Positions 11,862 to 28,588 of a stretch of 28,588 bases of DNA are shown piece by piece; position 1 is the first letter of the stretch, and each line of letters starts with the position of its first letter. Below the pieces are notes generated by a model. That model made no database searches. It was not told where the DNA came from and worked only from the letters and a program-made list of their open reading frames with translations. Source of the DNA: an uncultured Deferribacteres bacterium (lineage in GTDB: Bacteria; Zhuqueibacterota; Zhuqueibacteria; Zhuqueibacterales; Geothermadaptataceae); contig CAXHAT010000094.1 of assembly GCA_964014485.1 (NCBI GenBank), forward strand, positions 1 to 28,588. The letters are read 5' to 3'. The translations under genes were made by a program, and so were the position numbers.

Positions 11862-14363
11862 ATGACGCCGGAATCCAAGGATTTTGTTGACGAAATAACA
11901 GACTTGGCCCTGGACGTCGTCGCCGGAAGGAAAAACCTCGTATACGCTCATCGAATCGGCAGCAAGCGTATTAAGGTTGACAAGTCTTTTCAACTGAGCA
12001 TGCTTTTTGAAATCAACCAAAAAGTACAAGAGTTTAGAGTGGCGGAACCGGACCTAGCCGTCGCGCTGTCGCGACTTAATTTTCAGCTTGCAAAGGTCGC
12101 AAAAGATCATGCAACCATTGGCGTATCCGCCTGGACCTGTGGAAGTCTTGCAAAAAACGCCGAAGAATTTGAACAAGCCCTGAGATTATTCAAGAAAGCG
12201 CGGTTACATCTTCAGAAAGTTAACATCATATCGAATGTTGTGACGCTCACTTTGCACATCGCCCATATATATCAGAAGACAGGTGAATTCAAAAAAGCGC
12301 GCCGTCAGTTGAGCAGAGCTTTGAATAAGCTGCAAGAAATCGACAGTACTCGCCAAAAGAGCGAGTTATATTATATGATTGGCTTGCAATTCGAGATATT
12401 TGAGACCCTGGAAGACGTTTATAAGTCCGTCGCCTACTGCAAAAAAGGACTTAAACTGTCTGAGTCCGTACGTGATCTCGCTTCGTGCTTTAAAATAGCG
12501 GAGAATCTCCTTCGTTTGCACTACCAATTAGACGAACTTACAGATGCTATTGCGTTCTGTTCAAAAGTTATTTCCTTTTCGAGAGCGCTTGGTGATCCTG
12601 TTTCGGAAGCGCTTTACACGAGACAATTAGGCCTGCTCTACCACAGAATGTCTGATAATAATCAGGCTGTTCATTATTTTAAGAAGAGTCGGAATCTCGC
12701 TCAGAAACTCGGCAATCGAGACTTGCAACTAAAGGCGGATCTGGGGATCGCCGTCGTACTTGCCGCCGCAAGTCAATATTCTGCTTCTTTTTCTCTATAT
12801 AAGAAGCTTCTACATTCTGCAAGAGACTTGCAAGATGATGATTTTGAACTTGCGCTCTTGTCCTCGATTTCCTCCAGCTATTTGCGCATTGGGCGTCCGG
12901 CCAAAGCGCTCCACTATGAGCGGAAAGCACAAAGATTAGCCGCAAAACTTAATAAAACCAAGGTACGCATTCATAGTCTTGTTAAGATCGCAGAAGCTGA
13001 AATTGATTGCGGTTTCCCGCATAGAGCCATTAACCGGCTACAAAAAGAATTATTAAACCATCAAAAAAGTATGGATCCTGGGGTCGGCTACCGCTTGAAC
13101 GGCGTATTGGCTCGGGCCCACTTGGAATCAGGGCATCCAGAGTTGGCGCAGGATTTTTTTAGCCGGGCCATTCCTTTCGCTCGTCAACTGCATAAAGTTG
13201 CTCCATTATCAGTGCTGTTAATGAACTATGGTTCAGCTTGTCAATATGGGCACAGAATTCAACAAGCTCTAGAAGCCTATGAAGAAGCTATTGGTTTGAC
13301 CAAAAAGCACCACGACCGTCAGGGAGAAGCGAAAATTCAATCATATGTCGGTGATCTCTACTATTTTTATGGAGACATAATCAAGGCAAGAGAAGCCTAC
13401 GGTTCTTCCTTGAAGCTTTTTCGCAGTGCCAACGACCGAAGCGGCATACTTATGAATTTGATGCAAATCGCCCGCGTCTCAAAAGAAACGAGTATGATCG
13501 ATGAAGCCCGCTTGTCTTATGAGAAGTTGATGCAAATCGCCCAGAGATGGCGTTTTCCTAAGTATGAGATACAAGCCGCCGGAAATCTAGGCGTCCTTTT
13601 ATGCGCCAAGTCTGAACAATACGAATTGAAGAACGGACTCTATTATCTCAACAAGGCGATCAATATTGCCCATAAGCACAAGTTTGTTGGCGCGGAGATG
13701 CAGTGGAAAAACGAGCTTGGCTCGATTCACAGCGCTTTAGGCTCTCTCACTCAAGCAAGCGCCATATTTAAAAGCGTTTTAGCGGTCGCAAAAAAAACTG
13801 GTGACGTGGAGGCCGAAATGCAAGCTTCAGTCGGAGCGGCGACGATCTGCAAGCGGACCGCAAAATATAGGAACGGGTATCAATTCATCAAGCGAGCCGT
13901 TAGTATCTGTGAAAAACTAAGAGAACAGGCCCATCTGGAGCGTCACAAAATCAAATTTATGGAAGCTTCTGAAAAAATCTATTCTCTTGCTGTTGAAATT
14001 TGCATCGCAATGGACGAGAAGAAGACGGCCTTAAGATTTCTTGAAATGGCCAAATCTCGCGCATTGGCGGATCAAGTTTCATTGCAAGTCATGCGACTAT
14101 ATCAAAGCTCGCGGAGAACTCGCGATCTGATTGCAAAAGAAAAAACGATCTTGCTGAAACTAAAGTCAATGCAGGAACTGGATATATTTAATCTGAACCA
14201 AGCATTGCTTGATTCCGAGCGGCCGGTATTAAAATACAAGACACTAACTGCAGAGTTAGAAAATGTTTATACAAAACTAGGTGAGTTCGATCATCAGTAT
14301 GTTGCGCTACGAAAAGGTCTTCGTGTGAGCTATACAGCTATTCGAAGCGCTTTATGCAGATAA
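11862..14363 (+). CDS. Tetratricopeptide-repeat protein (N-terminal half of a TPR-CHAT architecture)
   Basis: Many TPR-like helical repeats, then ALRFLEMAKSRALAD and a coiled-coil/linker (YVALRKG..VSYTAIRSAL) typical of the region preceding a CHAT domain. Confidence 0.85.
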   Translation: MTPESKDFVDEITDLALDVVAGRKNLVYAHRIGSKRIKVDKSFQLSMLFEINQKVQEFRVAEPDLAVALSRLNFQLAKVAKDHATIGVSAWTCGSLAKNAEEFEQALRLFKKARLHLQKVNIISNVVTLTLHIAHIYQKTGEFKKARRQLSRALNKLQEIDSTRQKSELYYMIGLQFEIFETLEDVYKSVAYCKKGLKLSESVRDLASCFKIAENLLRLHYQLDELTDAIAFCSKVISFSRALGDPVSEALYTRQLGLLYHRMSDNNQAVHYFKKSRNLAQKLGNRDLQLKADLGIAVVLAAASQYSASFSLYKKLLHSARDLQDDDFELALLSSISSSYLRIGRPAKALHYERKAQRLAAKLNKTKVRIHSLVKIAEAEIDCGFPHRAINRLQKELLNHQKSMDPGVGYRLNGVLARAHLESGHPELAQDFFSRAIPFARQLHKVAPLSVLLMNYGSACQYGHRIQQALEAYEEAIGLTKKHHDRQGEAKIQSYVGDLYYFYGDIIKAREAYGSSLKLFRSANDRSGILMNLMQIARVSKETSMIDEARLSYEKLMQIAQRWRFPKYEIQAAGNLGVLLCAKSEQYELKNGLYYLNKAINIAHKHKFVGAEMQWKNELGSIHSALGSLTQASAIFKSVLAVAKKTGDVEAEMQASVGAATICKRTAKYRNGYQFIKRAVSICEKLREQAHLERHKIKFMEASEKIYSLAVEICIAMDEKKTALRFLEMAKSRALADQVSLQVMRLYQSSRRTRDLIAKEKTILLKLKSMQELDIFNLNQALLDSERPVLKYKTLTAELENVYTKLGEFDHQYVALRKGLRVSYTAIRSALCR

Positions 14364-15036: not shown

Positions 15037-16797
15037 ATGCAAGCAGCGCTCTATGCACGGGTTTCCACCGAAGAGCAAAAAGAAGGAAAAACCATTGATT
15101 CTCAGTTAGAAGAACTGAGACGCTTTGCGGATGAAAAAGGATACGACGTGACTGAAGAATATCTCGACGCCGGGGTCAGCGGGGCCACTATGATCAGACC
15201 GGGGCTTGGCAAGCTGCGTGAAGACGCTCAGGCCGGAAGATTTCAGACCGTGTTGGTTTATCATGTCGACCGGTTAGCGCGGGATACGACCTACCTGGGA
15301 ATCATCATGAAGGAAATGGCTCATTTTGGCGCTAAAGTTATCTTTAAACAGGTGCCTATAACCGCCAACGATGATGAAGAAGGTCAGGACCCGATGACAG
15401 ACTTTATTATTTCCTCCTTTGGCGGCGTGGCCCAACTGGAACGCGCGCTGATTAGAAGAAGAACGATAAGGGGCAGGAAGTACAAGGCGGAAGTGCGGCG
15501 GCTTGTCATCGGCCACAAAGCGCCCTACGGCTACCGCTACATCAAAAAGAACAGAGACGCTGGACAGGAAGGCTATTACGAACTGATTCCTGAAGAAGCA
15601 AAAGTCGTCAGGATGATTTTTGATTGGGTGGTTGACGAAGGATTGAGCGCGCGCCGCACTATCAAGCGCCTGGCGGACATGAAAATCCCGACCCGTACAG
15701 GCAATCCCAAATGGGCGAAAAGCACTGTTTCTCGTATTCTCAAGAACGAAACCTATTGCGGCGTAACGTATTACAACAAGCACAAGGTCACGCAGTTGCA
15801 CGAAGATTTCCCTCTCGTGGGTCAGAGCGGAGCCGCTTTGCACTTGCAAAACAAAGTCCGCTGTCGTCAGCGTCCAAAAGAACAGTGGATCGCCATTCCT
15901 ATGCCTGAGAACTGCCGCATCATCTCGCGAGAAAAATGGTTGCAAGCTCAGGAACAGCTAAAGCGAAACACGGCTTTTTCACCGAGAAACGCCAGGCGGA
16001 AGTATCTGTTGCAAGGACTGACTAGATGCGGCAATTGCGATTCGCCATTTACCGGAGAGGTAAGCAAGAACAGCACGGTTTATCGCTGCGGCAATCGTCA
16101 CAAGCGCTATCCGGAGCCGAGAAACTGCTTCGTGAAAAGCGCCAATCAAGCGGTTCTTGAAGACCTGGTTTGGAATTCGGTGACCGAAGCCGTTCAAAAC
16201 CCCGACGTTCTAACAGACCAGATTGAGCGCCTTCGAAAAAAATACGCCAATATGAACGTCGTGGAGCAAGAATTGGCCGAAGTGAAGCAAATTTTGCAAA
16301 AGAAGGCGAAAGAAGAGGACAGATTGATCGAAGCTTTGCAGGCCGGCGTGCTGACGATGGAGCAGATCAGGTCCAAGCTGGACGACTTGAATAAAGAAAA
16401 GGAGAGACTGTTGCGTGAAAAAGACAGACTTACGTCTGATATGAACAAGCAAGGCTTCTCCAAAATCGACGATTGGTCGATGGCGCAATGGCTGCAAGCC
16501 TTAAAAACGCGAATGAACGGCTTGGCGTTTGATGAAAGGCAAAATCTATTGCGTCGCCTGCTGAAATGTATCCGCATCGACGACGATAAAGTCGTCATTG
16601 ATGGTGAAATTCCCTTCGCCGCTGACGAAGCGTCTATAAACACGCCAAAGTGGAACAAAACCGATGACGCCCCTGCAATTGCGACCACGTTATCAGCAAG
16701 ACGTGGCCGCAATACGGCCTATGCAATTCCTTTCCAAATTGTTGAGCCTTTGCCCAGAAAAGTCAACCAATTCAAGACGATTACACCCAAGATATAA
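15037..16797 (+). CDS. Large serine recombinase (resolvase + recombinase + Zn-ribbon + coiled coil)
   Basis: ALYARVST (catalytic Ser), DAGVSG, RPGL, DRLAR, PYGY, LLQGLTRCGNC and YRC. Confidence 0.95.
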   Translation: MQAALYARVSTEEQKEGKTIDSQLEELRRFADEKGYDVTEEYLDAGVSGATMIRPGLGKLREDAQAGRFQTVLVYHVDRLARDTTYLGIIMKEMAHFGAKVIFKQVPITANDDEEGQDPMTDFIISSFGGVAQLERALIRRRTIRGRKYKAEVRRLVIGHKAPYGYRYIKKNRDAGQEGYYELIPEEAKVVRMIFDWVVDEGLSARRTIKRLADMKIPTRTGNPKWAKSTVSRILKNETYCGVTYYNKHKVTQLHEDFPLVGQSGAALHLQNKVRCRQRPKEQWIAIPMPENCRIISREKWLQAQEQLKRNTAFSPRNARRKYLLQGLTRCGNCDSPFTGEVSKNSTVYRCGNRHKRYPEPRNCFVKSANQAVLEDLVWNSVTEAVQNPDVLTDQIERLRKKYANMNVVEQELAEVKQILQKKAKEEDRLIEALQAGVLTMEQIRSKLDDLNKEKERLLREKDRLTSDMNKQGFSKIDDWSMAQWLQALKTRMNGLAFDERQNLLRRLLKCIRIDDDKVVIDGEIPFAADEASINTPKWNKTDDAPAIATTLSARRGRNTAYAIPFQIVEPLPRKVNQFKTITPKI

Positions 16798-17007: not shown

Positions 17008-17460
17008 TTACAGCAAGTTGTTCATGGCAAAGCTGTAGTGATCATCTTTGCCAATGATGATATGATCATGGAGTCGAAGCTCAGCAGCGTCGGCAAAACG
17101 CTTGAGCTTTCTCGTGAAGCTTTTGTCCGCCGGCGAAGGGGTCGGATCGCCCGTGGGGTGGTTGTGCAGAATAATCGCGCCGTAAGCATTGAAGACGAAC
17201 GACGTTCGGAATACTTCCAGGGGTCGTATGGAAACGCGGTTGACCGCTCCGACCGCGACGACTTCGAAGCACAAAATCTTGAAGCGCGAATCGATGCTGA
17301 CGGTGATGAACTTTTCTTTGGTCTCATCTTCGAGATCGGAAAAAAGCGAAACGATCTTTTGCGGATCGGCGGCGTTAGCTCCGGCAAGATCGCCGTCGGC
17401 GCGTTTCCGATTGTACCGGATTTCAACTTCGCGAAGATATGTGCATTTGCCTTTGGCCAT
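17008..17460 (-). CDS. radC: RadC-like JAB domain protein
   Basis: KEKF, IILHNHPTGDPTPSPAD (JAMM HxHx7Sx2D) and LHDHIIIG. Short mobile-element form. Confidence 0.9.
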   Translation of the reverse strand: MAKGKCTYLREVEIRYNRKRADGDLAGANAADPQKIVSLFSDLEDETKEKFITVSIDSRFKILCFEVVAVGAVNRVSIRPLEVFRTSFVFNAYGAIILHNHPTGDPTPSPADKSFTRKLKRFADAAELRLHDHIIIGKDDHYSFAMNNLL

Positions 17461-18517: not shown

Positions 18518-19462
18518 TTGTTTGCAGGCTGCGGCGGGTTTTCATTGGGGTTTATGAACGCCGGTTTCAATGTCGTCGCGGCGTTTGACAGTTGGAAATC
18601 GGCGATTGCAGTTTATCGCCAAAACTTCCCAGACCTTCCCGTTTTCGAACTTGATCTTTCCAGTGAAGACGCTGCACAACGCGTTGCAGAACATAAACCG
18701 GACGTCATTATTGGCGGGCCGCCGTGTCAGGATTTTTCGTCGGCGGGAAAACGGGATGAATCCTCGGGGCGCGCCGCTTTAACAATCTGTTTTGCGCAGA
18801 TTGTTGACGAAGTCAAACCTGCATGGTTTGTGATGGAAAACGTCGAACGCGCGAAAAAAAGCCGTTCGTTGCAGAAAGCCAACAAGATTTTTAGACGGGC
18901 TGGTTATGGCTTGACCCTGGTCGTATTGGACGCCGGCTTGTGCGGCGCGCCGCAAAAAAGAAAACGTCTGTTCATTATTGGAAAGCTTGGCGGAAAGGAC
19001 GACGCGCTCAAAGCCCGACTCGTGAATCATCTGAGCGGCAAGCCGACGTCGATGCGCGATTATTTCGGCGACGCATTGGATTTCGAACACTACTATCGCC
19101 ACCCGCGCAGCTACAAGCGGCGCGGAATTTTCAGCATCGATGAACCCAGCCCGACGATTCGCGGCGTGAGTCGACCCATGCCAAAGGGCTATCCCGGTCA
19201 TCCTGGTGACAGTGCGCCGAAGTCCGCAACCATTCGTCCGCTGACAACTGAAATGCGCAGTCAGGTGCAAACCTTTCCCGAGCGTTTTATTTTGGAAGGA
19301 TCAAAAACGGACTTGGAGCAAATGATCGGCAACGCCGTTCCAGTCAAGCTGGCTGAATATGTAGGAATGCAACTATTGGATCAAATTCAGGAGGGACTTT
19401 CTTTCCAATTACAGCTTTCTCAAGTATTCGAGAAATTAGCGAACGTCGATGCCGATGCCTGA
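18518..19462 (+). CDS. DNA (cytosine-5)-methyltransferase, orphan; true start upstream and uncertain
   Basis: Motif I (KVVDL)FAGCGG, IV GGPPCQDFS, VI MENV, VIII QKRKR, X IGNAVP. The TRD YYRHPRSY..RGIFSIDEPSPTIRG resembles from memory the M.HgiDI/M.HindV (GRCGYC) group. Confidence 0.92.
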   Translation: MFAGCGGFSLGFMNAGFNVVAAFDSWKSAIAVYRQNFPDLPVFELDLSSEDAAQRVAEHKPDVIIGGPPCQDFSSAGKRDESSGRAALTICFAQIVDEVKPAWFVMENVERAKKSRSLQKANKIFRRAGYGLTLVVLDAGLCGAPQKRKRLFIIGKLGGKDDALKARLVNHLSGKPTSMRDYFGDALDFEHYYRHPRSYKRRGIFSIDEPSPTIRGVSRPMPKGYPGHPGDSAPKSATIRPLTTEMRSQVQTFPERFILEGSKTDLEQMIGNAVPVKLAEYVGMQLLDQIQEGLSFQLQLSQVFEKLANVDADA

Positions 19463-19650
19463 AGGAAAGGTAAAACAAGCTTGAAAAACCAGGGAAGACG
19501 CTTACAAACAAAGTAGATTTTGTCAGCAAAAATAAAAAGCGATTGTTTCGTAGCCATTAGGGCGGCACAGCCCAAGCGGGCTGTTTCGAGAGAAAGAAAC
19601 GCTGCAACACATCCAGGCGCTATTGAAATCCGCGTAAGTAAAACAACCCC

Positions 19651-19690
19651 AAAGCCGTTCTCGCTTTCGCGGACGGCTTTTCTTCTTTTT
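19651..19690 (+). terminator. Intrinsic terminator
   Basis: AAAGCCGT...ACGGCTTT stem followed by a T-rich tract. Confidence 0.6.
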
Positions 19691-19779
19691 TGAGCAGGAG
19701 AAACCTATCGCTTGGTTTAACCTGCAACAGGTATTACTTTATATCCTCAATTTTATGAATACATTACCGGGAGCGCTCA

Positions 19780-20079
19780 ATGGATGAAATGAAAATCGAT
19801 ATTGCAACTGCGATGACACAATTACGCACCGAACTGCTGGAAGCGATTGATCAGGGAGAAAAAAGTTACCTGAAATTCGATCTCAAAGAAGTAGAAGTCG
19901 AATTCAAATGCTCCGTTCGCGCCGATGAAACCGCCAAGCTCGGCTTTAAATTCTGGTTGATTAATGGGCAACTAACCGGGAAAGACTCGGAAGAAATCGT
20001 ACAAACTGTGAAGCTAAAGTTAGACCCGCAACTCAGCGGGAAAAGCGTTCAGTTGAGCGACGAAGATAATCCGAGATAG
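19780..20079 (+). CDS. Trypco2-like (trypsin co-occurring) small protein
   Basis: Pattern AMTQLRTELLEA...LKFDLKEVEVEF...GFKFWLI...QTVKLKLDP, immediately upstream of a trypsin-like gene. Confidence 0.75.
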   Translation: MDEMKIDIATAMTQLRTELLEAIDQGEKSYLKFDLKEVEVEFKCSVRADETAKLGFKFWLINGQLTGKDSEEIVQTVKLKLDPQLSGKSVQLSDEDNPR

Positions 20080-20116
20080 TTTTTATATGCAGCAAACGAA
20101 ATAGGGGACAGGAGTT

Positions 20117-21556
20117 ATGATCGAACAGGACTGGCTTGCGGAAGTCGCGGCGCCCATTCCGGGCAAGAACGCCTCGAAAATCAGCACCGGCGCGCCGATT
20201 AGCCGCCGATTGTTGCTGACAACCGGCCACGGCGTACCGCAAGAGAAAGATCAGGAAATCAAGATTCGCTTTATTCGCGATTTTAGAGAAGGTAGAGATT
20301 GGCGAACGGCGCAAACCATTTGGCACGGTAAAAAGTACGGTATTGATGCGGCATTGCTCGAGTTCGATACCATCAAGGAACTCGATTCTTTCATTTACAC
20401 CGGAATGCGCCCCGTCAATCCGGTTGAATGGTACGGGGCCGGATTTGCGGCGGCGGGAAAGATTACGGAAGGCGAACTTGCCGGCTATCGTGATGCGCCG
20501 GGACTGGTTGGAAAGCTCAACCCCATGGGCAATCCGAAGACCGATCTGCTCGATCTAACGGTAGAAGCCAAGCCAGTCAAACCTAAGCTTTGGGCGGGGA
20601 TTTCCGGCGCGCCGGTTATATTCCATGGGCAATTGATCGGAATTATCCAGTCTCTCGATGAAGATTTCGGCGGCGACCGTCTCAACGCCATGCCCATGCA
20701 GCGCTTGCTTGAAATCCCCGAATTTTGCAAGCTGATCGTCTTCGAAGACCGCGAAGACCTTGTCAAGTCGTCACGTCACGATTTGGTGAACACGCTGAAA
20801 GAATCCGAAGAAGCCATGACCGCCCTGCACGCCCAAAAAGCGTTGAAGAACATCGTCAAAGGCGCGGAGACCATCATCGATGCATTGTTTAAGATGGATT
20901 TAGAAACGTTCTCCATAACTCTGCGCGGGGCGATTCGCAACCCTTGCGTCAAGTCGTCGGCTTCCGCCAACGTTCTTTTTGATACCCTGGATCGCATGCT
21001 GCCCATTCTTTATGACGCATCCACCATCGCCTCCGTCAAAACCCAAATTGGAGAATTTAATTTTATCCGCCTGCCCGTGCATACGCATACGATTGCGGAA
21101 ATCATTATGGCGGGCGTCGACCGCCGTCCAGTCAAATTTAAAAAACCCGTTAAAGGAACGGAACATCCGGTCGGTACTTTCAATATCGATTCGCAGCCGG
21201 AAACGGGTTTTGATCTGCAAAACGAAGCTGCGATCACCGACGTCGAAAATCACCTGGCCAAAAAGCTTTTGCCGGAGAGCGACTTTGCGGTTAGAAAAGA
21301 GACGCTGCACACGCTTATCAATGAAGAACTTGAATACCGCTCGGAAAACAACGACGAAGGCGGCGAAGCCTTGCGCCACTACTTCATTTATCGTGAAGAC
21401 GCCGTGCGAGATGATCTAGTCGCTTCCTTGAAACGCATTTTTCACCAAATCAAGTTTATCGCTATAACCGGAACCGAAGCGTCCTTGATTGAAGAGCGGC
21501 GCATCAGTCGGCCGCTAAGAGACGCCTACGAACGCAGGAGAGATGAAAAAAAATGA
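20117..21556 (+). CDS. Trypsin-like serine peptidase fused to an uncharacterised C-terminal domain (probable MoxR/vWA-associated protein)
   Basis: Catalytic triad LLTTGHGV (His), DAALL (Asp), GISGAPV (Ser). No signal peptide. Stop overlaps the MoxR start. Confidence 0.8.
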   Translation: MIEQDWLAEVAAPIPGKNASKISTGAPISRRLLLTTGHGVPQEKDQEIKIRFIRDFREGRDWRTAQTIWHGKKYGIDAALLEFDTIKELDSFIYTGMRPVNPVEWYGAGFAAAGKITEGELAGYRDAPGLVGKLNPMGNPKTDLLDLTVEAKPVKPKLWAGISGAPVIFHGQLIGIIQSLDEDFGGDRLNAMPMQRLLEIPEFCKLIVFEDREDLVKSSRHDLVNTLKESEEAMTALHAQKALKNIVKGAETIIDALFKMDLETFSITLRGAIRNPCVKSSASANVLFDTLDRMLPILYDASTIASVKTQIGEFNFIRLPVHTHTIAEIIMAGVDRRPVKFKKPVKGTEHPVGTFNIDSQPETGFDLQNEAAITDVENHLAKKLLPESDFAVRKETLHTLINEELEYRSENNDEGGEALRHYFIYREDAVRDDLVASLKRIFHQIKFIAITGTEASLIEERRISRPLRDAYERRRDEKK

Positions 21557-22530
21557 CCTGGAAACACCTGAGCTTCAAAACCAACGAAAAACCCGTCGTC
21601 GAGCTCGATGCGCTGGACAAGGGCCTGGAGCAAGTGCATTTGTTCGATGACGATTCCATCGCCGCCGTCAACGCCGCCATTGCCGCACGACGGCCTCTGC
21701 TGGTGCGGGGCGAACCTGGCACCGGCAAAACGCAACTGGCCCGCGCCGCCGCCAAGAAGCTCGGCTGGGCGTTTATTCCCGCCACCGTAGACGCTCGCAC
21801 CGAAGCCAGCGAATTGTTCTACACCGTCGACGCCGTCACCCGCCTGGGCAAGGCCCAGGCCGTCGCCGCGCTGGGCGTGAAAACCGCTTCGGAAGTCGAA
21901 GGTCTGCTCAACGAAAAAAATTACGTCATACCGGGCGAGCTCTGGTGGGCGTTCAACTGGCAATCGGCCCAGGAGCAGGCTGACTTGGCCAAAAGCGAGA
22001 CAATGGCTTTGCCGGACAAAGGCGATCCGGACGAAGGCCGGGTGCTGCTCATCGATGAAATCGACAAGGCCGACGCCGACTTGCCCAACAGCCTGCTTGA
22101 AGCTTTCGGCGCCTGGCAATTCAGGCCGAAGGGCTTCGAAGGTTCCGTTTTGCGCGAAGAAAAACCCATTCTCGTGATTATTACCACCAACGAGGAGCGC
22201 GCCCTGCCCGACGCCTTCGTGCGCCGTTGTCTGGTCTTGCATCTCGCCTTCGAAGAAAACAACCTGGTCGATTTCTTCGTCAAGCGCGGCAAGGTGCATT
22301 TCCCCAAAATGACGCTTCCCATTCTAAAATACGCCGCCGAACAAGTGGAAAAAGACCGCAAACGCTGGCGCAGCGAACACCCCGGCGTACCGGCGCCCGG
22401 TCTGGCGGAATACCTCGACCTGCTGCGCGCCGTGCATGATCTTTCCGACGGCAAGGCCGAAAAACAGAAGGGCTTGCTTGATGACATTAAACACTTCGCC
22501 CTGGACAAGCATCCGAAAGGACCGGCGTGA
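21553..22530 (+). CDS. MoxR-family AAA+ ATPase
   Basis: RPLLVRGEPGTGKT (Walker A), VLLIDEIDKAD (Walker B), ITTNEERALPDAFVRRC. Confidence 0.93.
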   Translation: MTWKHLSFKTNEKPVVELDALDKGLEQVHLFDDDSIAAVNAAIAARRPLLVRGEPGTGKTQLARAAAKKLGWAFIPATVDARTEASELFYTVDAVTRLGKAQAVAALGVKTASEVEGLLNEKNYVIPGELWWAFNWQSAQEQADLAKSETMALPDKGDPDEGRVLLIDEIDKADADLPNSLLEAFGAWQFRPKGFEGSVLREEKPILVIITTNEERALPDAFVRRCLVLHLAFEENNLVDFFVKRGKVHFPKMTLPILKYAAEQVEKDRKRWRSEHPGVPAPGLAEYLDLLRAVHDLSDGKAEKQKGLLDDIKHFALDKHPKGPA

Positions 22531-25500
22531 TGAGCTTTTGCGGACGCGGCGACCTGCTGCGCATTTTGGCGCACACACAGGACGAACAGCGCATCGCCCG
22601 CTTCGTCGGCTATAAAGCGGGGTTTCGACCGACGGCGGCGCCCTCGAAGCCCGCAAAGCCTGGAGAAGCGCCAGCGCCGTCCGACGCCCCGAAAGACGAA
22701 AAGCCGGAAGAAAAAATCATCATCAAACACATGGACGCACCTTTTTTCGTCCCGGTGCGCTTTGATCCGGTTGAGCCGGAAGAAAAAGAAGAGGTCGAGA
22801 AAAACCGCCTCACCCTCGCCGATTTGCTCGACACCCGCCTGAGCCTTGAACCGCCGCCGCCAACGCCGCTCCTGGCGCCCTGGTCGCGCCTCGAACGCCG
22901 GGCCGCCGCGCTGCTGAAAGAACCCGCCCCCAGCAGGATGCTCGACATCCAAAAACTGATCGACTGCATGACGCGCGCGCAAGTGCTGGAAAAAATTCCC
23001 CGCAAGCAAAGAAAACGCTGGCCGCGTCGCTTACGCCTTGTCGTCGACAGAAGCGCGCATCTTACGCCGTTTTACCATGACCAGGACGAGGCTGTTTCCA
23101 GGCTGGAAGCCGCCATCGGGACGGGGAACGTCGACCTTTTTCTCATGGATGAAAGCGCGAAGAAGCCCAGGCCTGTGCGACGATTACGACAGCGCGGCGT
23201 TACCTTCGCGCACAACCCCGAAACGCCGGTTTTGGCGCTCGGCGATTGCGGCGCGCTTACCCTGTACGATCAGAATGCGCGCAAGTGGCTCGCGCTCGGT
23301 GAAGCGGTGCGCGAAGAAGGCGGCGCGCCAAAACTCCTGTCCTTTGCGCCACCGTGCCGGTTGTCGGCGATGCTCACATCTTGCTGGCAATGGCGCACCT
23401 GGCAAGATCGCCGTCTGTATCCCCATATTTTGGATGAGCGTACACTGGCGGAGAACGCTCTCAACCTACTGACCCTGACCGCGCACGCCAACGGCGTTGA
23501 GCCCGGTCTTTTGCGTGAATTGCGCAATCTTTTGCCCGCCAACCAAGCGGACGCCGGTACGGAAGCCGACGTTTGGGCGCATCCTTACGTTGTCGGCGTT
23601 TTCGTTTCCGGGTTTAGCGTCTCGCCGGAAAAAGTCAAGGAATTGCGGGACGGTTTTGCCGAACTCGACGATCATTTGCGGGCGCGGGCGCTGCGGGTGA
23701 TCGAAAAATGGCGGCAATCGAAGCCGATGGAAATCTGGTTTGAAGAACTGCTTGGCTTGAGCAATGAAAAGGATAAAAAGCTCTACCGGAAAGATCGGGC
23801 GCGCGCCCAGGCTTTTTTTACCCGTTACGCACAAACCATTCAACATGAATCCCAAAAGAGCGACGGCGTGATCTTTAAGGGTCTGGCCGCCCACCTGCTG
23901 CGCATGAGAGAACGCACAGATTATGACGGCGCCACCTGGGACAGGGAGACAATTTTAGGTCGGGAGCTGCACGCCGCATTGGAAAAGGCGCTCGAAGGCA
24001 GACGAGTGGTTAAAATCCCCGTGGGCGGCGCGCCGCAAGACTGGGGCGATCCCGGCGAACGCCGCGAATGGCGCTTTGTGCAGCGGGGCGAAACGTTTGA
24101 AGTGACGCAAAAAAGCGCCGCTGAACCGCCGCCCAACGCCAGTCCGGTCGCATCCTTGCAATCGACCCGCCCAATCTTCGATCTTGCTCGAGCGGCAGCG
24201 CCAACTGAGCGTCTTTTTAAGCCGCTATGGGCGCAAGACGTTGGCGAAGACCAGTTTGGGATTTGGGCGATGATTCACGTCGGCGAGGCGGAGCAAAAAC
24301 TGCGCTGGATCGCACCCGGCGAATTCATGATGGGTTCGCCAGAAAATGAAGAAGGGCGCTACGATGACGAAAAGCAGCATCACGTTACCTTGACGCGCGG
24401 TTTTTGGCTGTTCGACGCGCCGGTGACGCAAGCGCTTTGGCAAGCGGTCATGGGCGAAAATCCGAGCGATTTCAAAGGCGAAAACCTGCCAGTGGAAAAC
24501 GTAAGCTGGGAAGATTGCCAGGCGTTTCTCGAAAAAATCAATCAATCCACCGGCCTGGCTTTGTCTTTGCCCAGTGAGGCGCAATGGGAATACGCCTGCC
24601 GCGCTGGAACGACCGGTGCGCGCTATCACGACAATATCGATGAAATCGCCTGGTACACGGACAACAGCGGCTCTAAAACGCACCCGGTCGGCGAAAAACA
24701 TCCGAACGCCTGGGGCCTTTATGACATGCTCGGCAATGTGGACGAATGGTGCCAGGATTATAGAGAAGAAAACTATCCCGACGAACCGGTGATCGATCCG
24801 CTCGGCCCGGAAACCGGCGCCAGGCGCGTGATTCGCGGCGGCAGTTGGAGCGACTACGCTCGCCTCGTGCGTGCGGCTTGTCGCGGCTGGGTCAGGCCAG
24901 GCTACCGCAGCAGCAGCCTGGGCTTCCGGTGCTCCCAGTTCCCGTTGCCGGAGGACGACGCGGATGCGCTAGCCGGTTTAAGCGGAGCGAGCAAAGTTGA
25001 GCCGGTCTCGGCGGAGCCGGACGGCGAAACTGCAGCAAGCGCAGCGGCCGCGCACACCAGCGACAAGTCCGGGGAGCGCCGCAAACGGCGCATCCAGGAA
25101 CTCAAGCCCGATTGGGCCGCTACCATCGGCGAAGATCGCTATGGCCTATGGACGAATTTTCGGCTGCGGGAAATCGAACAGCGCCTGCGCTGGATCGCGC
25201 CCGGCGAATTTCTCATGGGCTCGCCGGAAGGCGAACAAGGTCGTTTCCCGGAGCGCGAGAAACAACACCGGGTCACCCTTACACAGGGCTTCTGGCTGTT
25301 CGATACGCCGGTGACGCAGGCGCTCTGGCAGGCGGTTATGAGCAAGAATCCGAGCTATTTCCAAAGTCCGACGCGACCCGTCGAGCAAGTGAGTTGGGAC
25401 GATTGCCGGAAATTCATCGAAAAAATCAATCAATCCAGCGGAATGGTTTTATCTCTGCCGACTGAGGCGCAATGGGAGTACGCCTGCCGCGCCGGAACCA

Positions 25501-26075
25501 CGACGGCGACTTACGCCGGCGATCTTGAAATTTTAGGTCAAAACAACGCGCCAATTCTCGATGAAATCGCTTGGTACGGCGGCAACAGCGGCGTCGATTT
25601 TGAACTGGAGAACGGATATGATGTGTCCGGTTGGTCGGAAAAACAATACGATCATCAAAAAGCGGGCACGCATCCAGTCGCCGAGAAACAACCGAACGCC
25701 TGGGGTCTCTACGACATGCTCGGCAATGTCTGGGAATGGTGTCAGGACTGGCTCGAAAATTATCCCGACGAGACGATGGTCGACCCAATCGGCCCGGAAA
25801 CCGGCGCCGGGCGCGTGATTCGCGGCGGCAGTTGGTACAGCTTCGCTCGCTACGTGCGTGCGGCTTATCGCTACTGGTACGAGCCAGGCTACCGCAACTA
25901 CTACCTGGGCTTCCGGTGCTCCCAGTTCCAAGTACAGGAGGAAGGCGCGGCAGCGCTAGCCGGATTAAGCGGAGCGAGCAAGGTTGAGCCGGTCTCGGCG
26001 GAGCCGGACGGCGAGACCGCAGCAAGCGCAGCGGCGTCGACCTTGCGAAAAATTTTTAGGCGTAAAAAGACATGA
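22527..26075 (+). CDS. DGR target: vWA-like N-terminal region plus two tandem FGE-sulfatase (CLec-fold) domains, each ending in a variable region
   Basis: LVVDRS and VLALGD vWA-like motifs. Two copies of FxMGS...PVTQALW...LPxEAQWEYACRAG...PNAWGLYDMLGNVxEWC...RVIRGGSW...LGFR. Confidence 0.92.
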   Translation: MMSFCGRGDLLRILAHTQDEQRIARFVGYKAGFRPTAAPSKPAKPGEAPAPSDAPKDEKPEEKIIIKHMDAPFFVPVRFDPVEPEEKEEVEKNRLTLADLLDTRLSLEPPPPTPLLAPWSRLERRAAALLKEPAPSRMLDIQKLIDCMTRAQVLEKIPRKQRKRWPRRLRLVVDRSAHLTPFYHDQDEAVSRLEAAIGTGNVDLFLMDESAKKPRPVRRLRQRGVTFAHNPETPVLALGDCGALTLYDQNARKWLALGEAVREEGGAPKLLSFAPPCRLSAMLTSCWQWRTWQDRRLYPHILDERTLAENALNLLTLTAHANGVEPGLLRELRNLLPANQADAGTEADVWAHPYVVGVFVSGFSVSPEKVKELRDGFAELDDHLRARALRVIEKWRQSKPMEIWFEELLGLSNEKDKKLYRKDRARAQAFFTRYAQTIQHESQKSDGVIFKGLAAHLLRMRERTDYDGATWDRETILGRELHAALEKALEGRRVVKIPVGGAPQDWGDPGERREWRFVQRGETFEVTQKSAAEPPPNASPVASLQSTRPIFDLARAAAPTERLFKPLWAQDVGEDQFGIWAMIHVGEAEQKLRWIAPGEFMMGSPENEEGRYDDEKQHHVTLTRGFWLFDAPVTQALWQAVMGENPSDFKGENLPVENVSWEDCQAFLEKINQSTGLALSLPSEAQWEYACRAGTTGARYHDNIDEIAWYTDNSGSKTHPVGEKHPNAWGLYDMLGNVDEWCQDYREENYPDEPVIDPLGPETGARRVIRGGSWSDYARLVRAACRGWVRPGYRSSSLGFRCSQFPLPEDDADALAGLSGASKVEPVSAEPDGETAASAAAAHTSDKSGERRKRRIQELKPDWAATIGEDRYGLWTNFRLREIEQRLRWIAPGEFLMGSPEGEQGRFPEREKQHRVTLTQGFWLFDTPVTQALWQAVMSKNPSYFQSPTRPVEQVSWDDCRKFIEKINQSSGMVLSLPTEAQWEYACRAGTTTATYAGDLEILGQNNAPILDEIAWYGGNSGVDFELENGYDVSGWSEKQYDHQKAGTHPVAEKQPNAWGLYDMLGNVWEWCQDWLENYPDETMVDPIGPETGAGRVIRGGSWYSFARYVRAAYRYWYEPGYRNYYLGFRCSQFQVQEEGAAALAGLSGASKVEPVSAEPDGETAASAAASTLRKIFRRKKT
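24816..24938 (+). repeat. DGR variable region 1 (VR1, internal)
   Basis: Ungapped 123-nt match to TR with 18 mismatches, 17 at TR adenines. Confidence 0.95.
24966..25048 (+). repeat. Post-VR 83-bp direct repeat, copy 1
   Basis: 79/83 identical to 25953-26035 and at the same distance from its VR. Confidence 0.9.
25803..25925 (+). repeat. DGR variable region 2 (VR2)
   Basis: Ungapped 123-nt match to TR with 15 mismatches, 14 at TR adenines. Confidence 0.95.
25953..26035 (+). repeat. Post-VR 83-bp direct repeat, copy 2, with GC-rich hairpin
   Basis: Contains the stem CGGTCTCG (25990-25997) / CGAGACCG (26012-26019). Confidence 0.9.
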
Positions 26076-26533
26076 AAATCCGAATATTCACCATCCCCGT
26101 TTTAGGTGGAGAAGACCTTGAGTCGGAACTGAATGGTTTTCTTTCAAGCCATCGAATCGTTTCCGTCGAAAAGCAGCTCGTGCAATCCGGCGGGCAAAGC
26201 TATTGGACGTTTTGCCTGACCTGGACGGAAGCGCGCACGACCCTGCCGGGCCGCAAGACAAGAATCGACTACAAGGAAATTCTGGACGAACGACAGTTCG
26301 CACTCTATGCCAAGCTGCGCGATCTGCGCAAAAGCCTATCCGAACAAGAAGGCGTTCCGGCTTACACGCTATTTACCAATGAACAGTTGGCGGAAATCGT
26401 CAAGCGGCAAGTCGTTTCAAAATCGGCGTTGGCGGCCATAAAAGGCGTTGGCCCGGCGCGTGTTGAAAAATACGGCGCGCCGGTTATTGCCTGCATTAAG
26501 GACTTTTTCGAAAAAGAGATTGGAGTTGAATAA
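26072..26533 (+). CDS. HRDC-domain protein (probable DGR accessory protein)
   Basis: LYAKLRDLRKSLSEQEGVPAYTLFTNEQLAEI...IKGVGPARVEKYG is an HRDC pattern. ATGA overlap with the target; lies between target and RT. Confidence 0.88.
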   Translation: MKIRIFTIPVLGGEDLESELNGFLSSHRIVSVEKQLVQSGGQSYWTFCLTWTEARTTLPGRKTRIDYKEILDERQFALYAKLRDLRKSLSEQEGVPAYTLFTNEQLAEIVKRQVVSKSALAAIKGVGPARVEKYGAPVIACIKDFFEKEIGVE

Positions 26534-26665
26534 TTCATGGATTCCAGCAATTTCAAAACAGATGAGAGAGAAACATCCCTCTGCTTTTCGAAGGGAGTTT
26601 GCGATTCCCCCTTCGGAGGGCTTTCAAATGTAGGTTTTTTCTTTTTACTCGAAAACGTTGTTTTT

Positions 26666-26742
26666 GTCATACCCGCGCAGGCGGGTATCCAGAATTTTCT
26701 GAGCGTACGGCGAGACTGGATGCCCGCCTGCGCGGGCATGAC
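26666..26742. repeat. Inverted pair of REP/dRS3-like palindromic units
   Basis: GTCATACCCGCGCAGGCGGGTATCCAG (26666-26692) and an inverted copy at 26716-26742. Confidence 0.85.
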
Positions 26743-26967
26743 ACGGTGGATTACACTCAGATTTTCAAAACCTGCCCCTGAAAGTCTTCGAAGGGGGACG
26801 ATTTGTGAATTCCGACTGATTCGGGAGAACAAATCAGGGGGATGTTCGCCAGGCATGCTTTTAAACTTAGTTTCAACAATTTGAGCCTGAAACGGCGGTT
26901 TGTAAATAACTGATGTTACGCATATAAGGCATAATCTCAAATTATGCCTGAAAAACACTGTTTCTAC

Positions 26968-27038
26968 GTCATTCCCGCGCAGGCGGGAATCCAGAGGCTC
27001 TGCGCGATTGACTGGATTCCCGCCTGCGCGGGAATGAC
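26968..27038. repeat. Inverted pair of REP/dRS3-like palindromic units
   Basis: GTCATTCCCGCGCAGGCGGGAATCCAG (26968-26994) and its exact reverse complement at 27012-27038. Confidence 0.9.
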
Positions 27039-27111
27039 TTCAACAGGAAGAATTTCTGTGTTGTGATTGGTGTGTAACATCAGTAAATAATTCAGGTGGA
27101 AGCAAACAGCC

Positions 27112-28125
27112 ATGAAGCGCTGCAAGGTCACCCTCGCGCAAATCGCGGACTTGAACACGCTGTACCGCGCTTTCTGGCGCGTCGCACAAGGCAAGCGCCG
27201 TCGCCCGGAGGTGCGCGCCTTTGAAGAAAACCTCGACGCCCGCCTGACGGCGCTCTCGCGGGAAATCCTGAGCGGAGCCGTGCGCGTCGGGCGCCAGCGA
27301 AAATTCAGAATTTTTGATCCCAAGCCGCGCGAAATCTCCGCCCCCTGTTTTCGCGAGCGCGTACTGCACCATGCGATTATTGAGCACATCGGCCCGACGC
27401 TCGAAAAAACCGCCGTCTTCGACAGCTACGCCTGTCGCAAGAACAAAGGAACGATCAAAGCCGTTCAACGCGCGCAGCATCATGCCCGCCGCTTTCCCTG
27501 GTACGCCCAAATCGACATAAAACGCTATTTTAAGAGCATCGATCACGCTATTTTAAAAACGCTGCTGCGTCGGCGCTTAAAACATGAGCCGCTCCTGGAA
27601 TTGTTAGACAAAATCATTGAGGCCGGAGCGGACGGTCCCGGTCGCGGCCTGCCGATTGGCGCGCTTACCTCGCAAACCTTCGCCAATTTCTATCTGGGCG
27701 GCTTTGATCGCTTTTTCCTGGAGCGTTGCAAGGTCGCCGCCATGCTGCGCTACATGGACGACGTCGTTTGGTGGACGCACGAGAAAGCGCACGCGGAGCT
27801 TGTCCTGCAACAGGCCGCCAATTTTCTGAAAAGCGAACGCGCACTGACAATAAAAGCCGGCTACAAAGTGCAGCGCAGTAAAGCCGGCATACACTTGTGC
27901 GGCTTTCATATTCTGCCGGGACGCATTCGCCTCGGCAGGCGCCGCCGCAAACTCTATGTGCAGACCTGGAAGCATTGGGAAAAGCAGTACCGGGAAGGAA
28001 AAATCAGCGAGCGCCAACTGCAAATCGGTTATGAAGGCGCCCGGTCGCTGACTTTATTCGCCGACGCCCGCGCGTGGCGGCAAAGACTGCATCGACAAGC
28101 TTCGGAGGTGGAGCTCGGCTTTTAA
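27112..28125 (+). CDS. DGR reverse transcriptase
   Basis: PKPREI, FRERVLHHA, SYACR..KG, DIKRYF, GLPIGALTSQ (DGR-type GxxxSQ), RYMDD. 337 aa with no maturase or endonuclease domain. Confidence 0.95.
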   Translation: MKRCKVTLAQIADLNTLYRAFWRVAQGKRRRPEVRAFEENLDARLTALSREILSGAVRVGRQRKFRIFDPKPREISAPCFRERVLHHAIIEHIGPTLEKTAVFDSYACRKNKGTIKAVQRAQHHARRFPWYAQIDIKRYFKSIDHAILKTLLRRRLKHEPLLELLDKIIEAGADGPGRGLPIGALTSQTFANFYLGGFDRFFLERCKVAAMLRYMDDVVWWTHEKAHAELVLQQAANFLKSERALTIKAGYKVQRSKAGIHLCGFHILPGRIRLGRRRRKLYVQTWKHWEKQYREGKISERQLQIGYEGARSLTLFADARAWRQRLHRQASEVELGF

Positions 28126-28152
28126 GAGCCGTCTTAAGACGCCCGTGTTCTC

Positions 28153-28179
28153 GTCATTCCCGCGCAGGCGGGAATCCAG
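28153..28179 (+). repeat. Single REP/dRS3-like unit
   Basis: Identical to 26968-26994. Confidence 0.85.
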
Positions 28180-28230
28180 TAATTTTGTGGTTTTGAATTC
28201 GTCAATATCAATCAGGGCAACGCCCCCAAA

Positions 28231-28353
28231 AGCGCCAAGCGCGTGATTCGTGGCGGCAGTTGGAACAACAACGCTCGCAACGTGCGTGCGGCTTATCGCA
28301 ACTGGAACAAGCCAGGCAACCGCAACAACAACCTGGGCTTCCGGTGCTCCCAG
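28231..28353 (+). ncRNA. DGR template region (TR)
   Basis: AAC-rich copy of both VRs (10 AAC and 2 AAG codons in VR frame), about 105 nt downstream of the RT. Diverges 3' of TCCCAG (TTC in the VRs, CTC in TR). Confidence 0.95.
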
Positions 28354-28495
28354 CTCGACGGCGGATTGGATGATCCGCGGTGGAACAGGGCGTTGTCCCG
28401 TCCGCATTTTTGCGGCGAACAGCAATTGACGCCCGGCGTGTGAGTAGCCGTCGCGAAAGCTCGCCGGGTTGCCTTTCTCTGACAATGGCTCGAAC

Positions 28496-28588
28496 ATGAT
28501 TGAAGTGATCAAAGAAATTTCTCACCCGCTTGTGCGCGGCGCGCCGCCGGAATGGGCCTCCGGCTGGGGACAGGATCAGTGCGGCGTC
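28496..28588 (+). CDS. 5' fragment of a probable further FGE-sulfatase/CLec protein (runs off window)
   Basis: MIEVIKEISHPLVRGAPPEWASGWGQDQCGV matches the P-x-WA-xxx-G-x-D-x-x-G lead-in of both CLec domains (PLWAQDVGEDQFG, PDWAATIGEDRYG). Confidence 0.65.
   Translation, partial: MIEVIKEISHPLVRGAPPEWASGWGQDQCGV

Follow-up and report, generated by a model that had tools for sequence, protein, structure and literature searches.

One TR and three VRs in a DGR locus from an uncultured lineage, with two VRs on a single tandem-lectin target

DGR targets with tandem variable repeat (VR) domains in a single ORF are already in print (Schillinger 2012, PMC3521204; Wu 2018, PMC5758913; Yan 2019; Doré 2024, PMC10907252). 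As far as they are described in the sections we draw on, MarpuDRAFT_1558 of Marichromatium purpuratum 984 (PMC3521204, PMC5758913) and DGR 4 and 5 of Thiohalocapsa PB-PSB1 (PMC10907252) carry tandem VR-bearing FGE-sulfatase/lectin domains in one ORF served by one TR, their VRs are diversified separately, and genes for a MoxR-type ATPase, an adaptor and a peptidase adjoin the target. All of this applies to the locus reported here. The published targets are described as having three domains and a recognisable N-terminal vWA, whereas the present one has two domains and a module that Pfam does not match, and in comparison with those descriptions our locus has an additional short target. The two-VR target is a real new example of this design, already described from comparable putative defence systems. 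A further relative is TvpA of Treponema denticola, which illustrates the FGE-sulfatase targets, a class in which more than half are listed without any further appended motif; like ours, its cassette holds an HRDC gene, a known alternative accessory gene that 14 of 372 DGRs possess (all from the parts of Wu 2018, PMC5758913, used here).

The window is the whole stretch of DNA analysed, 28,588 nt in length, and its features are collected in Table 1. When the three repeats were realigned, TR matched both VR1 and VR2 over 123 nt without gaps, and the coordinates and the counts of 17 and 14 adenine changes that had been proposed from inspection of the sequence (hereafter the original prediction) proved correct. 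The 18 sites at which VR1 differs from TR comprise 12 A>G, 4 A>T, 1 A>C and 1 T>C, and the 15 of VR2 comprise 5 A>G, 9 A>T and 1 T>C. The original prediction had missed a third repeat, VR3, on contig C428. It is changed at 14 adenine sites and shares the T>C, which is located at position 28251 (T in TR, C in all VRs). Thus TR adenines account for 17/18, 14/15 and 14/15 of the differences in VR1, VR2 and VR3, respectively. The TR adenines occupy 15 first, 14 second and 1 third codon positions, and every one of the 24 that are mutated in VR1 or VR2 lies at codon position 1 or 2. VR1 and VR2 are unlike at 20 of these 24 sites, in keeping with the expectation that they would differ at most of them. 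Only one TR-type copy was found in the 8.4-Mb assembly. The repeat alignment and this genome-wide count together bear out the central claim that one TR serves two separately diversified VRs in a single polypeptide.

Table 1. Features of the locus and their coordinates in the window
Feature	Coordinates	Strand	Remarks
Trypco2 adaptor-domain gene, 99 aa	19780..20079	+	Pfam PF19631, E 3.7e-20
Trypsin-like peptidase protein, 479 aa	20117..21556	+	Weak matches only
MoxR-like AAA+ ATPase	21553..22530	+	3' end overlaps target gene start
DGR target gene, 1182 aa	22527..26075	+	Uninterrupted ORF; N-terminal module and two tandem FGE-sulfatase/C-type-lectin domains, each VR-terminated
N-terminal module, residues 102-512	22830..24062	+	Alpha/beta domain followed by helical domain; no Pfam family
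Lectin-fold (FGE-sulfatase) domain 1	24249..24941	+	61% identity to domain 2 (tblastn)
VR1, internal variable repeat	24816..24938	+	17 adenine-site changes and 1 T>C relative to TR
Post-VR tail copy 1 (linker peptide)	24966..25048	+	Beyond TR homology
Lectin-fold (FGE-sulfatase) domain 2	25134..25931	+	About 34 extra residues
VR2, C-terminal variable repeat	25803..25925	+	14 adenine-site changes and the same T>C relative to TR
Post-VR tail copy 2	25953..26035	+	Near-repeat of 24966-25048
HRDC-domain accessory gene, 153 aa	26072..26533	+	Pfam HRDC, E 3.7e-17; intact
REP/MITE-like palindromes	26659..27045		Fill HRDC-RT spacer; repeat families D5, D6, I1-I6
Reverse transcriptase (RT), 337 aa, intact	27112..28125	+	Pfam RVT_1, E 8.8e-15; PADLOC RT, E 2.3e-42
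TR	28231..28353	+	30 adenines; ten AAC codons
Start of second, short target gene	28497..28588	+	Runs off contig end

The history of the VRs can be read from the sites that are not adenines in TR. VR1 and VR2 do not differ at any of the 93 non-adenine sites, and none of VR1, VR2 and VR3 carries a private change at these sites. The 108 nt just upstream of the VRs, which belong to the scaffold, show 15.7% divergence between domains 1 and 2; given this value, 0/93 has a probability of about 1e-7. Similarly, third codon positions of the two domains differ at 0/41 sites in the VR, against 11/36 and 35/80 in the scaffold. Identity of the VRs at non-adenine and third positions despite a diverged scaffold (61% protein identity, with about 102 nt of insertions in domain 2) supports homogenisation of the VRs by TR through repeated overwriting. 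The original prediction had reached the same view from diverged scaffolds with inserted residues and identical non-adenine bases, and each of these points held. At the 3' side, a GC-rich block of 22 nt is identical in TR, VR1, VR2 and VR3. The TR and VR sequences part directly after it, and the first 4 nt downstream are the same in the three VRs. No common stem that could serve as a recognition hairpin was seen in DNA folds of the 130 nt 3' of VR1, VR2, VR3 and TR (z −2.3 to −3.8).

Both VRs are in frame within the long ORF and each makes up the last 41 residues of one FGE-sulfatase domain (Pfam E 3.2e-84, in two stretches). The distance from the end of VR1 to the stop codon is 1137 nt, as predicted (about 1.1 kb). 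The two tails that follow the VRs lie outside TR homology; they are identical at 79/83 nt, and the other 4 sites are all third codon positions. In structural comparison the whole model came closest to TvpA (2y3c, E 1e-9, 33% identity), a target of the FGE-sulfatase subclass, through its lectin domains. TvpA is a surface lipoprotein with one lectin domain and one VR. In contrast, the target here has two VR domains, an N-terminal region of 570 residues and no visible export signal; nor was a hydrophobic segment found in its 1182 residues (highest 19-residue Kyte-Doolittle mean 1.13). The label of receptor given in the original prediction is therefore doubtful, the more so as the gene context is, in the sections of Doré 2024 (PMC10907252) that treat it, that of putative intracellular antigen sensors. 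From this context, namely Trypco2, a trypsin-like peptidase and a MoxR-like ATPase, the long target is most likely a cytoplasmic sensor within a MoxR-type conflict system rather than a surface receptor.

The genes upstream of the target were then compared with those of its relatives. The ATPase matched Pfam AAA_5 well above the cut-off (E 6.9e-12, 46 bits against 22) and bpMoxR just under it (E 3.4e-6, 26.7 bits against 27); a MoxR-like ATPase also stands directly upstream of the target in relatives L006, L012 and L030. For the 479-aa protein, Trypsin_2 (E 0.06, residues 25-176) was the only Pfam match up to E=1, with no VMAP family reported from a Pfam set that may lack VMAP models, and PADLOC matched the Avs1b N-terminus (E 5.2e-5). 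Its counterpart in L006 matched Trypsin_2 at E 1.5e-5, and the His, Asp and Ser motifs align between the two proteins. L006 also has the Trypco2 gene at the same position, and the gene neighbourhood of the target is conserved there. The Trypco2 adaptor, the trypsin-like peptidase protein, the MoxR-like AAA+ ATPase, the long target and the short target form a conserved five-gene module.

Downstream of the long target, an adenine-specific TR/VR pair, an adjacent RT, a lectin domain ended by a VR and an HRDC accessory gene are all present, as in DGRs. The RT gene lies upstream of TR, with 105 nt between the end of its ORF and TR. Its translation contains YMDD and IGALTSQ, the latter being presumably a DGR-type motif, and the assignment of the RT to the DGR type is based on the profile matches and this motif. 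Pfam revealed no Avd gene in the cassette. A 115-aa ORF (26537-26884) was considered as a candidate Avd and rejected, as it has no family match and runs through the REP palindrome; it is probably spurious and not a gene. A further copy of the REP/MITE-like palindromes lies at 28146-28185, between the RT gene and TR, and their 14-nt core occurs 236 times on 127/465 contigs. The sole Rfam match within 19000-28588 was a chance miRNA hit on the REP palindrome (E 0.062). Past TR, frame 2 encodes a peptide matching the motif that precedes both lectin domains. Contig C428 begins about 45 residues further into such a domain, which closes with VR3 and a stop codon, and no sequence overlap between it and the end of the window was found. 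Judged from these sequences, VR3 probably ends the short lectin-only target begun at 28497.

To see how common the tandem arrangement is, the relatives of the target were surveyed. Two FGE stretches occur in 7/16 close relatives. In a larger set of 163, one complete lectin domain was found in 84 members, two in 26 and three in 1, so that two or more are present in at least 27 of the 111 members in which such a domain is complete. In L006 and L007 a single ORF encodes the N-terminal module and two lectin domains, and a short target stands as a separate gene after it; their VR blocks show fixed and variable columns patterned as in the target of the window. In L034 and L037, relatives with a single domain, the long and the short target alike are matched by TR/VR pairs with an adenine bias. 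The genome of L006 yielded three VRs and no TR copy; that of L007, queried with the VR of L006, gave no match, a result which this choice of query makes uninformative. The single-ORF tandem-VR architecture of the window is genuine and recurrent. The suggestion in the original prediction that an internal VR is unusual was overstated, since tandem VR-bearing FGE-sulfatase domains have been published since 2012 and are frequent in this family. The idea that the tandem design arose once, in the distant past, found no support: on a FastTree tree of 46 domains the labels of first and second domain need 16 changes against 15.7 when shuffled, in a tree with weak branch support from which the three-domain protein and 4 two-domain proteins with domains split in three pieces were omitted.

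The N-terminal module was modelled by AlphaFold2 with 45 sequences at pLDDT 91.2 and pTM 0.87. Its relatives number 998 representatives at E<=1e-3; an N-terminal extension "without predicted domains" is thus common to about a thousand representative DGR targets. In a fold search, vWA domains scored Z 8.6-8.9, level with phosphoribosyltransferases (Z 8.9), and the vWA of NorD matched the module with a Foldseek probability of 0.98 (E 7e-3). D-x-S and G-D motifs are conserved in this region, and we take them to resemble the MIDAS strands of vWA. Pfam vWA gave no match in the target up to E=1, and hhalign against a profile of 15 vWA domains taken from the same genome returned probabilities of 0.05-0.6%. 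A profile search of PDB sequences retrieved GrpE only (E 0.099), NCBIfam had no match to the module, and the ESM Atlas scores of 0.75-0.84 are below the useful range. On the strength of the model, the alpha/beta domain with its helical extension could be the missing counterpart of vWA. A bolder proposal is that the extension plugs the target into the MoxR ATPase by means of a cryptic, vWA-like docking domain whose metal site has degenerated, followed by a STAND-like helical domain, and that about a quarter of the family repeatedly evolved two independently rewritten binding sites per chain by local duplication. We regard this as doubtful. If it were true, the target would be a single-chain two-paratope immune sensor whose combinatorial repertoire would be the product of both VR repertoires, with two ligands at once either demanded or tolerated.

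Taken together, the above results are best explained by a DGR in which one TR serves three VRs, two on a probably cytoplasmic, two-site sensor of 1182 aa that belongs to the five-gene module and one on the short target; we put the probability of this reading at about 0.8. The single TR would supply mutagenised cDNA to all three VRs. The RT would copy TR RNA with errors at adenines, and the cDNA would replace each VR separately, so that the two pockets of the long protein would come to have different sequences, while VR3 would most likely end the lectin-only protein encoded 3' of TR. The long protein is the variable component of the module and most likely senses ligands through two binding sites that are diversified independently of each other. 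By analogy with Kaur 2020 and Doré 2024, such a sensor would be coupled through the MoxR-like ATPase to the peptidase effector. Should the bivalent sensing put forward in the original prediction be demonstrated, bacteria would have an analogue of multi-paratope immune receptors.

An alternative is that the DGR is a fossil, whose VRs record past homing and are no longer diversified. The T>C at 28251, common to all VRs, fits this view if TR mutated after the last homing of all of them; either that is so or the site lies beyond the transferred tract, the first adenine with clear variation being 13 nt further downstream. The REP-like elements in the HRDC-RT and RT-TR gaps and the failure to find Avd in the cassette also agree with a decayed element, whereas the intact RT ORF with its catalytic box and the intact HRDC gene speak against decay. 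Population data consisted of assembled Logan contigs from three runs of one marine-metagenome study, at a depth of about 5, compared with 22000-28588. These low-depth contigs gave no usable VR polymorphism, as a fossil would; apparent variants at 25753-25899 over VR2 match the VR3 paralogue mapped onto VR2. However, assembled contigs lose rare variants, so that they cannot prove absence of variation, and contig gaps in runs X2 and X3 have no meaning as absence. Against 30-44% divergence at synonymous scaffold sites, the lack of private changes at the 93 non-adenine sites indicates that homing was recent on that scale. We therefore consider it unlikely that the element has fallen silent.

It could also be argued that only VR2 (and VR3) are still homing targets, and that the internal VR1 is a duplicated relic in which rewriting has ceased. 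Unequal diversification of VRs within one target is reported in Doré 2024 (PMC10907252), at least in the portion cited here, and at an internal site a downstream recognition element would have to double as coding sequence. Yet VR1 keeps the 22-nt block and the first 4 nt downstream as in VR2 and VR3, is free of private changes at the 93 non-adenine sites and bears the most adenine-site changes of the three, which makes its retirement quite improbable. Finally, the tandem arrangement might be an assembly artefact fusing two separate lectin-domain genes. The assembly, a metagenome bin, is fragmented into 465 contigs, a third paralogue broke the assembly at the contig end, and some run contigs have repeat-induced joints between the domains (24601>25714 and 25240>24367). 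Against this, a 580-nt contig from run X1, possibly of the same sample as the window, spans 24662-25241 with zero differences and connects VR1, by way of the linker, to domain 2; the ORF is continuous, and no fewer than 27 relatives share this architecture, as do L006 and L007, from other assemblies and phyla. An artefact is thus extremely improbable, and the two-site target served by one TR stands as the preferred reading.

Two described groups come close to this locus in gene content. In the VMAP ternary conflict systems, as presented in the relevant part of Kaur 2020 (PMC7159879), a MoxR-like ATPase and a Trypco adaptor with a trypsin-like peptidase are found, as they are here (the ATPase adjacent to the target, the peptidase match weak), and a DGR-linked hypervariable FGS domain occupies the C-terminus of the central protein, as here. 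Those systems are defined by vWA and VMAP domains, whereas here neither was detected by sequence and the fold evidence for vWA is ambiguous. Thiohalocapsa DGR 8 and 9 and "clade 5A", within the description given in Doré 2024 (PMC10907252), resemble our locus in possessing an additional short target made up of a lectin domain only, in having genes for Trypco2 and a trypsin-like peptidase nearby and, so far as the Pfam matches show for our locus, in lacking a canonical VMAP domain; the likeness is one of gene content. One lectin domain per target is described there, whereas our long target has two. The locus is a well-resolved example, from an uncultured lineage, of one TR with three VRs, two of them on one chain. 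It adds two points to the published descriptions, so far as these extend in the sections cited: tandem VR domains, described there only for the vWA-bearing lineage, are common (at least 27/111) in a MoxR-associated family with an uncharacterised N-terminal extension, and this extension has a confidently predicted fold (pLDDT 91).

The template repeat (TR) and the two variable repeats of the long target (VR1, ending lectin domain 1, and VR2, ending lectin domain 2) were compared in an ungapped three-way alignment, in which they prove to be copies of a single 123-nt unit. VR1 departs from TR at 17 adenines (12 A>G, 4 A>T, 1 A>C) and VR2 at 14 (5 A>G, 9 A>T); the only other change, found in both, is a T>C at TR position 28251. 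The coordinates, the gapless match and the adenine counts of the original prediction were correct in every particular. The TR contains ten AAC codons and 30 adenines (15 at the first, 14 at the second and 1 at the third codon position). Twenty-four adenine sites are altered in one or both VRs, every one at codon position 1 or 2; the VRs differ at 20 of these, that is at most of them, as had been claimed, and carry an identical change at 4. At all 93 non-adenine sites VR1 equals VR2. In contrast, the 108 nt immediately 5' of the VRs are 15.7% divergent between the two domains, so that 0 differences in 93 sites would be very unlikely by chance (P about 1e-7). Likewise, 0 of 41 third codon positions differ between the VRs, versus 7/20, 4/16 and 35/80 in stretches of the scaffold. 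The lectin domains share 61% protein identity, with about 102 nt of insertions in domain 2, which agrees with the predicted contrast of diverged scaffolds and identical non-A bases. Taken together, the invariance of non-adenine and third positions against a diverged scaffold indicates that the VR blocks were rewritten from a shared template when the two domains had long been separate, and the mechanics expected of a diversity-generating retroelement (DGR) are borne out.

Positions of features in the window and of two further RT genes of the same genome
Feature	Position	Strand	Remarks
Tyrosine integrase	3755-4762	-	5' of DGR module
Sigma-70-family gene	9366-9995		beside CHAT/TPR pair
CHAT protease-domain gene	10889-11779	-	E 1.7e-35; divergent to TPR gene
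TPR protein gene	11862-14363	+	833 aa
Large serine recombinase	15037-16797	+	5' of DGR module
RadC-like JAB protein	17008-17460	-	5' of DGR module
C-5 cytosine methyltransferase	18518-19462	+	5' of DGR module
Trypco2 gene		as long target	5' of long target; E 3.7e-20
479-aa protein		as long target	5' of long target; weak N-terminal match to trypsin-like peptidases
MoxR-like AAA+ ATPase gene		as long target	5' of long target; stop overlaps its start
Long target	22527-26075	+	1182 aa
VR1	24816-24938
83-nt stretch after VR1	24966-25048
VR2	25803-25925
83-nt stretch after VR2	25953-26035
Palindromes, HRDC-RT spacer	26659-26743, 26961-27045		REP/MITE-like
Palindrome, RT-TR gap	28146-28185		REP/MITE-like
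TR	28231-28353
RT gene on contig C135	7212-8102
RT gene on contig C74	30618-31496

The genome bin amounts to 8.4 Mb in 465 contigs, of which the window is one entire 28.6-kb contig. A search of the bin with TR returned one TR, VR1, VR2 and a third VR (VR3) on the 2.5-kb contig C428, and also a weak 72% match on contig C343, which elsewhere carries an unrelated FGE-type domain (38-41% identity, tblastn). VR3 differs from TR at 14 adenines and by the T>C seen in VR1 and VR2. The lectin domain that it ends is 83% DNA-identical to domain 2 and truncated at the contig end, with a stop 12 codons past VR3. In the final 92 nt of the window, 3' of TR, a reading frame opens whose peptide matches the motif preceding both lectin domains. 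Because of this motif and of the ending of the C428 domain in VR3, 28497 is very probably the start of a short lectin-only target whose remainder, less about 45 residues, is on C428, a join that we infer from contigs that do not overlap. No paralogue of residues 1-535 of the long target was found elsewhere among the 465 contigs.

The GC-rich 3'-terminal 22 nt of the repeat are identical in TR and all three VRs, and are followed directly by TTCC in the VRs, where TR departs. By the Bordetella phage system, we take this junction to be the expected place of an IMH-like boundary. Folds of the downstream sequence gave no hairpin common to the repeats. All three VRs (24836, 25823 and C428) have C where TR has T at 28251, a synonymous difference (CGT vs CGC). 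Either TR changed later than the last homing into any of the VRs, for which the shared T>C is the one sign, or 28251 lies outside the transferred tract, as it might since adenines become unambiguously variable only 13 nt beyond it. Outside TR homology, an 83-nt stretch recurs from 28 nt past VR1 and VR2. Its copies agree at 79/83 positions and mismatch only at 4 third codon positions; they are far closer to each other than the domain scaffolds are, and VR3 is not followed by it. Gene conversion, a young duplication or a DNA-level signal could account for this similarity.

The stretch is contained in only three public runs, all from one marine-metagenome study and used as assembled contigs with a depth of about 5. 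A 580-nt contig, possibly from the window's own sample, matches 24662-25241 with 0 differences, which confirms that VR1 is joined to the linker and domain 2 in one stretch. Differences over 25753-25899 were rejected as population variation because they reproduce the letters of VR3 and thus reflect paralogue mapping.

The long target is followed by an HRDC-domain gene (E 3.7e-17), a 580-nt spacer, the reverse transcriptase (RT) gene and TR. The RT is intact (337 aa; RVT_1 E 8.8e-15, PADLOC RT E 2.3e-42) and contains IGALTSQ and YMDD. According to Wu 2018 (PMC5758913), an HRDC accessory gene is known and uncommon (14/372 DGRs), about half of these having avd too. A 115-aa ORF in the spacer was rejected as Avd, since it runs through a palindrome and matches no family. 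The 14-nt core of the REP/MITE-like palindromes occurs 236 times on 127/465 contigs of the genome, and the contig depth in one run (X1) rises from about 5 to 441 over 26840-27059. MITE-like arrays in DGR loci of a different bacterium are described in Doré 2024 (PMC10907252). Two more RT genes of the genome are about 31% identical to the cassette RT; the TR search of the genome linked neither to these VRs.

Residues 1-570 of the long target match no Pfam or NCBIfam family, and the N-terminal region belongs to a family with 998 representatives at E<=1e-3 and 598 at E<=1e-10. A model of residues 102-512 (pLDDT 91.2, pTM 0.87; 45-sequence alignment) consists of an alpha/beta domain and a helical domain. 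For the alpha/beta part, fold search gave the vWA domains of CMG2 (Z 8.9), ANTXR2 (Z 8.7) and TEM8 (Z 8.6), equalled by phosphoribosyltransferases (Z 8.9); the part after it gave MalT (Z 9.0) and a STAND protein (Z 8.1). The vWA domain of NorD (NorQD complexes) was returned by Foldseek at a probability of 0.98 but E 7e-3, and the vWA domains of the genome itself gave a negative profile comparison (probability <1%). Given the tie in fold and this negative comparison, vWA is a possible reading of the alpha/beta part. We infer a cytoplasmic location from the lack of any hydrophobic segment or obvious signal peptide in the protein; the predicted 'receptor', as a surface protein, is probably wrong. 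For the lectin domains, the closest structural match is TvpA. Modelling of the whole protein (pLDDT 63.8, pTM 0.41) gave low confidence over the residues encoded by VR1 and VR2 and no readable placement of the two pockets relative to each other. Bivalent binding by the long target is an unproven proposal.

The gene order 5' of the long target recurs at L006, a locus from a bin recorded as Methylococcaceae: Trypco2, a Trypsin_2 protein, an AAA_5 protein, a two-lectin long target and a short lectin-only target. The peptidase His, Asp and Ser motifs align between the window's 479-aa protein and its L006 counterpart. The region further 5', with its integrase, recombinase, RadC-like and methyltransferase genes, resembles a mobile or defence island. 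The CHAT/TPR pair there may be another conflict-type module; beside it, within 9366-10720, the sigma-70-family gene is accompanied by a possible zf-HC2 protein (weak, E 0.033).

Among 16 near relatives found via the N-terminal region, FGE-sulfatase stretches number two in 7 and one in 9. In the pool of both searches (163 relatives), a local domain profile counted one complete lectin domain in 84, two in 26, three in 1 and none in 52, the last mostly fragments <700 aa; this count is an underestimate, some proteins with two Pfam stretches being scored as one. Of 75 loci in reference genomes, the 13 whose match starts within the first 140 residues were inspected. L006 and L007 have two lectin domains in the long ORF and a separate short target; in seven (L012, L027, L030, L033, L034, L037 and L040) a single domain in the long ORF is accompanied by short targets; the remaining four are single-domain or truncated by contig ends. 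In L006 and L007 the columns of the VR blocks follow the fixed/variable pattern of DGR diversification; adenine specificity is unproven for L006, since its assembled genome contains no TR. TR/VR pairs at L034 and L037 are adenine-biased (16/18, 20/22, 14/15 and 16/17 differences). As in the window, TR lies between the long and short lectin-only targets at the single-domain loci L034 (11086-11276), L037 (11560-11690) and L030 (11486-11653), preceded at L030 by only a 203-aa RT fragment. A FastTree tree built from 46 domain scaffolds, trimmed of their VR part, does not separate first from second domains (16 changes vs 15.7 shuffled), and in it the window's two domains are mutual nearest relatives (69% identity, local support 90), which weakly fits repeated local duplication or concerted evolution. 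In the record of one related protein (P0017, 1520 aa), the N-terminal module and a lectin domain are fused to the type VI secretion sheath domains VipA and VipB; this fusion may be real or result from read-through in gene calling.

A DGR target with tandem VRs in a single ORF is of a kind already known, and the window locus is another member. Schillinger 2012 (PMC3521204) called 'highly unusual' a 3366-bp ORF of Marichromatium purpuratum 984 with three tandem FGE-sulfatase paralogues and three VRs; Wu 2018 mentions a single target with three such tandem domains, apparently all diversified, and Yan 2019 (PMC6642488) reports several VRs within the same ORF in 31 DGRs. MoxR-vWA ternary systems were defined, and a DGR link drawn, by Kaur 2020 (PMC7159879). 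In Doré 2024, Thiohalocapsa DGR 4 and 5 combine a vWA domain with three tandem lectin domains in VMAP/MoxR systems, and VRs within one target are unequally diversified. The same source describes a large 'clade 5A' in which a MoxR-like ATPase is followed by a target whose N-terminal extension is uncharacterised, the second target is short and lectin-only, and Trypco or trypsin genes lie nearby. Compared with these descriptions, the window locus brings together a neighbourhood like that of clade 5A and the tandem-domain design.
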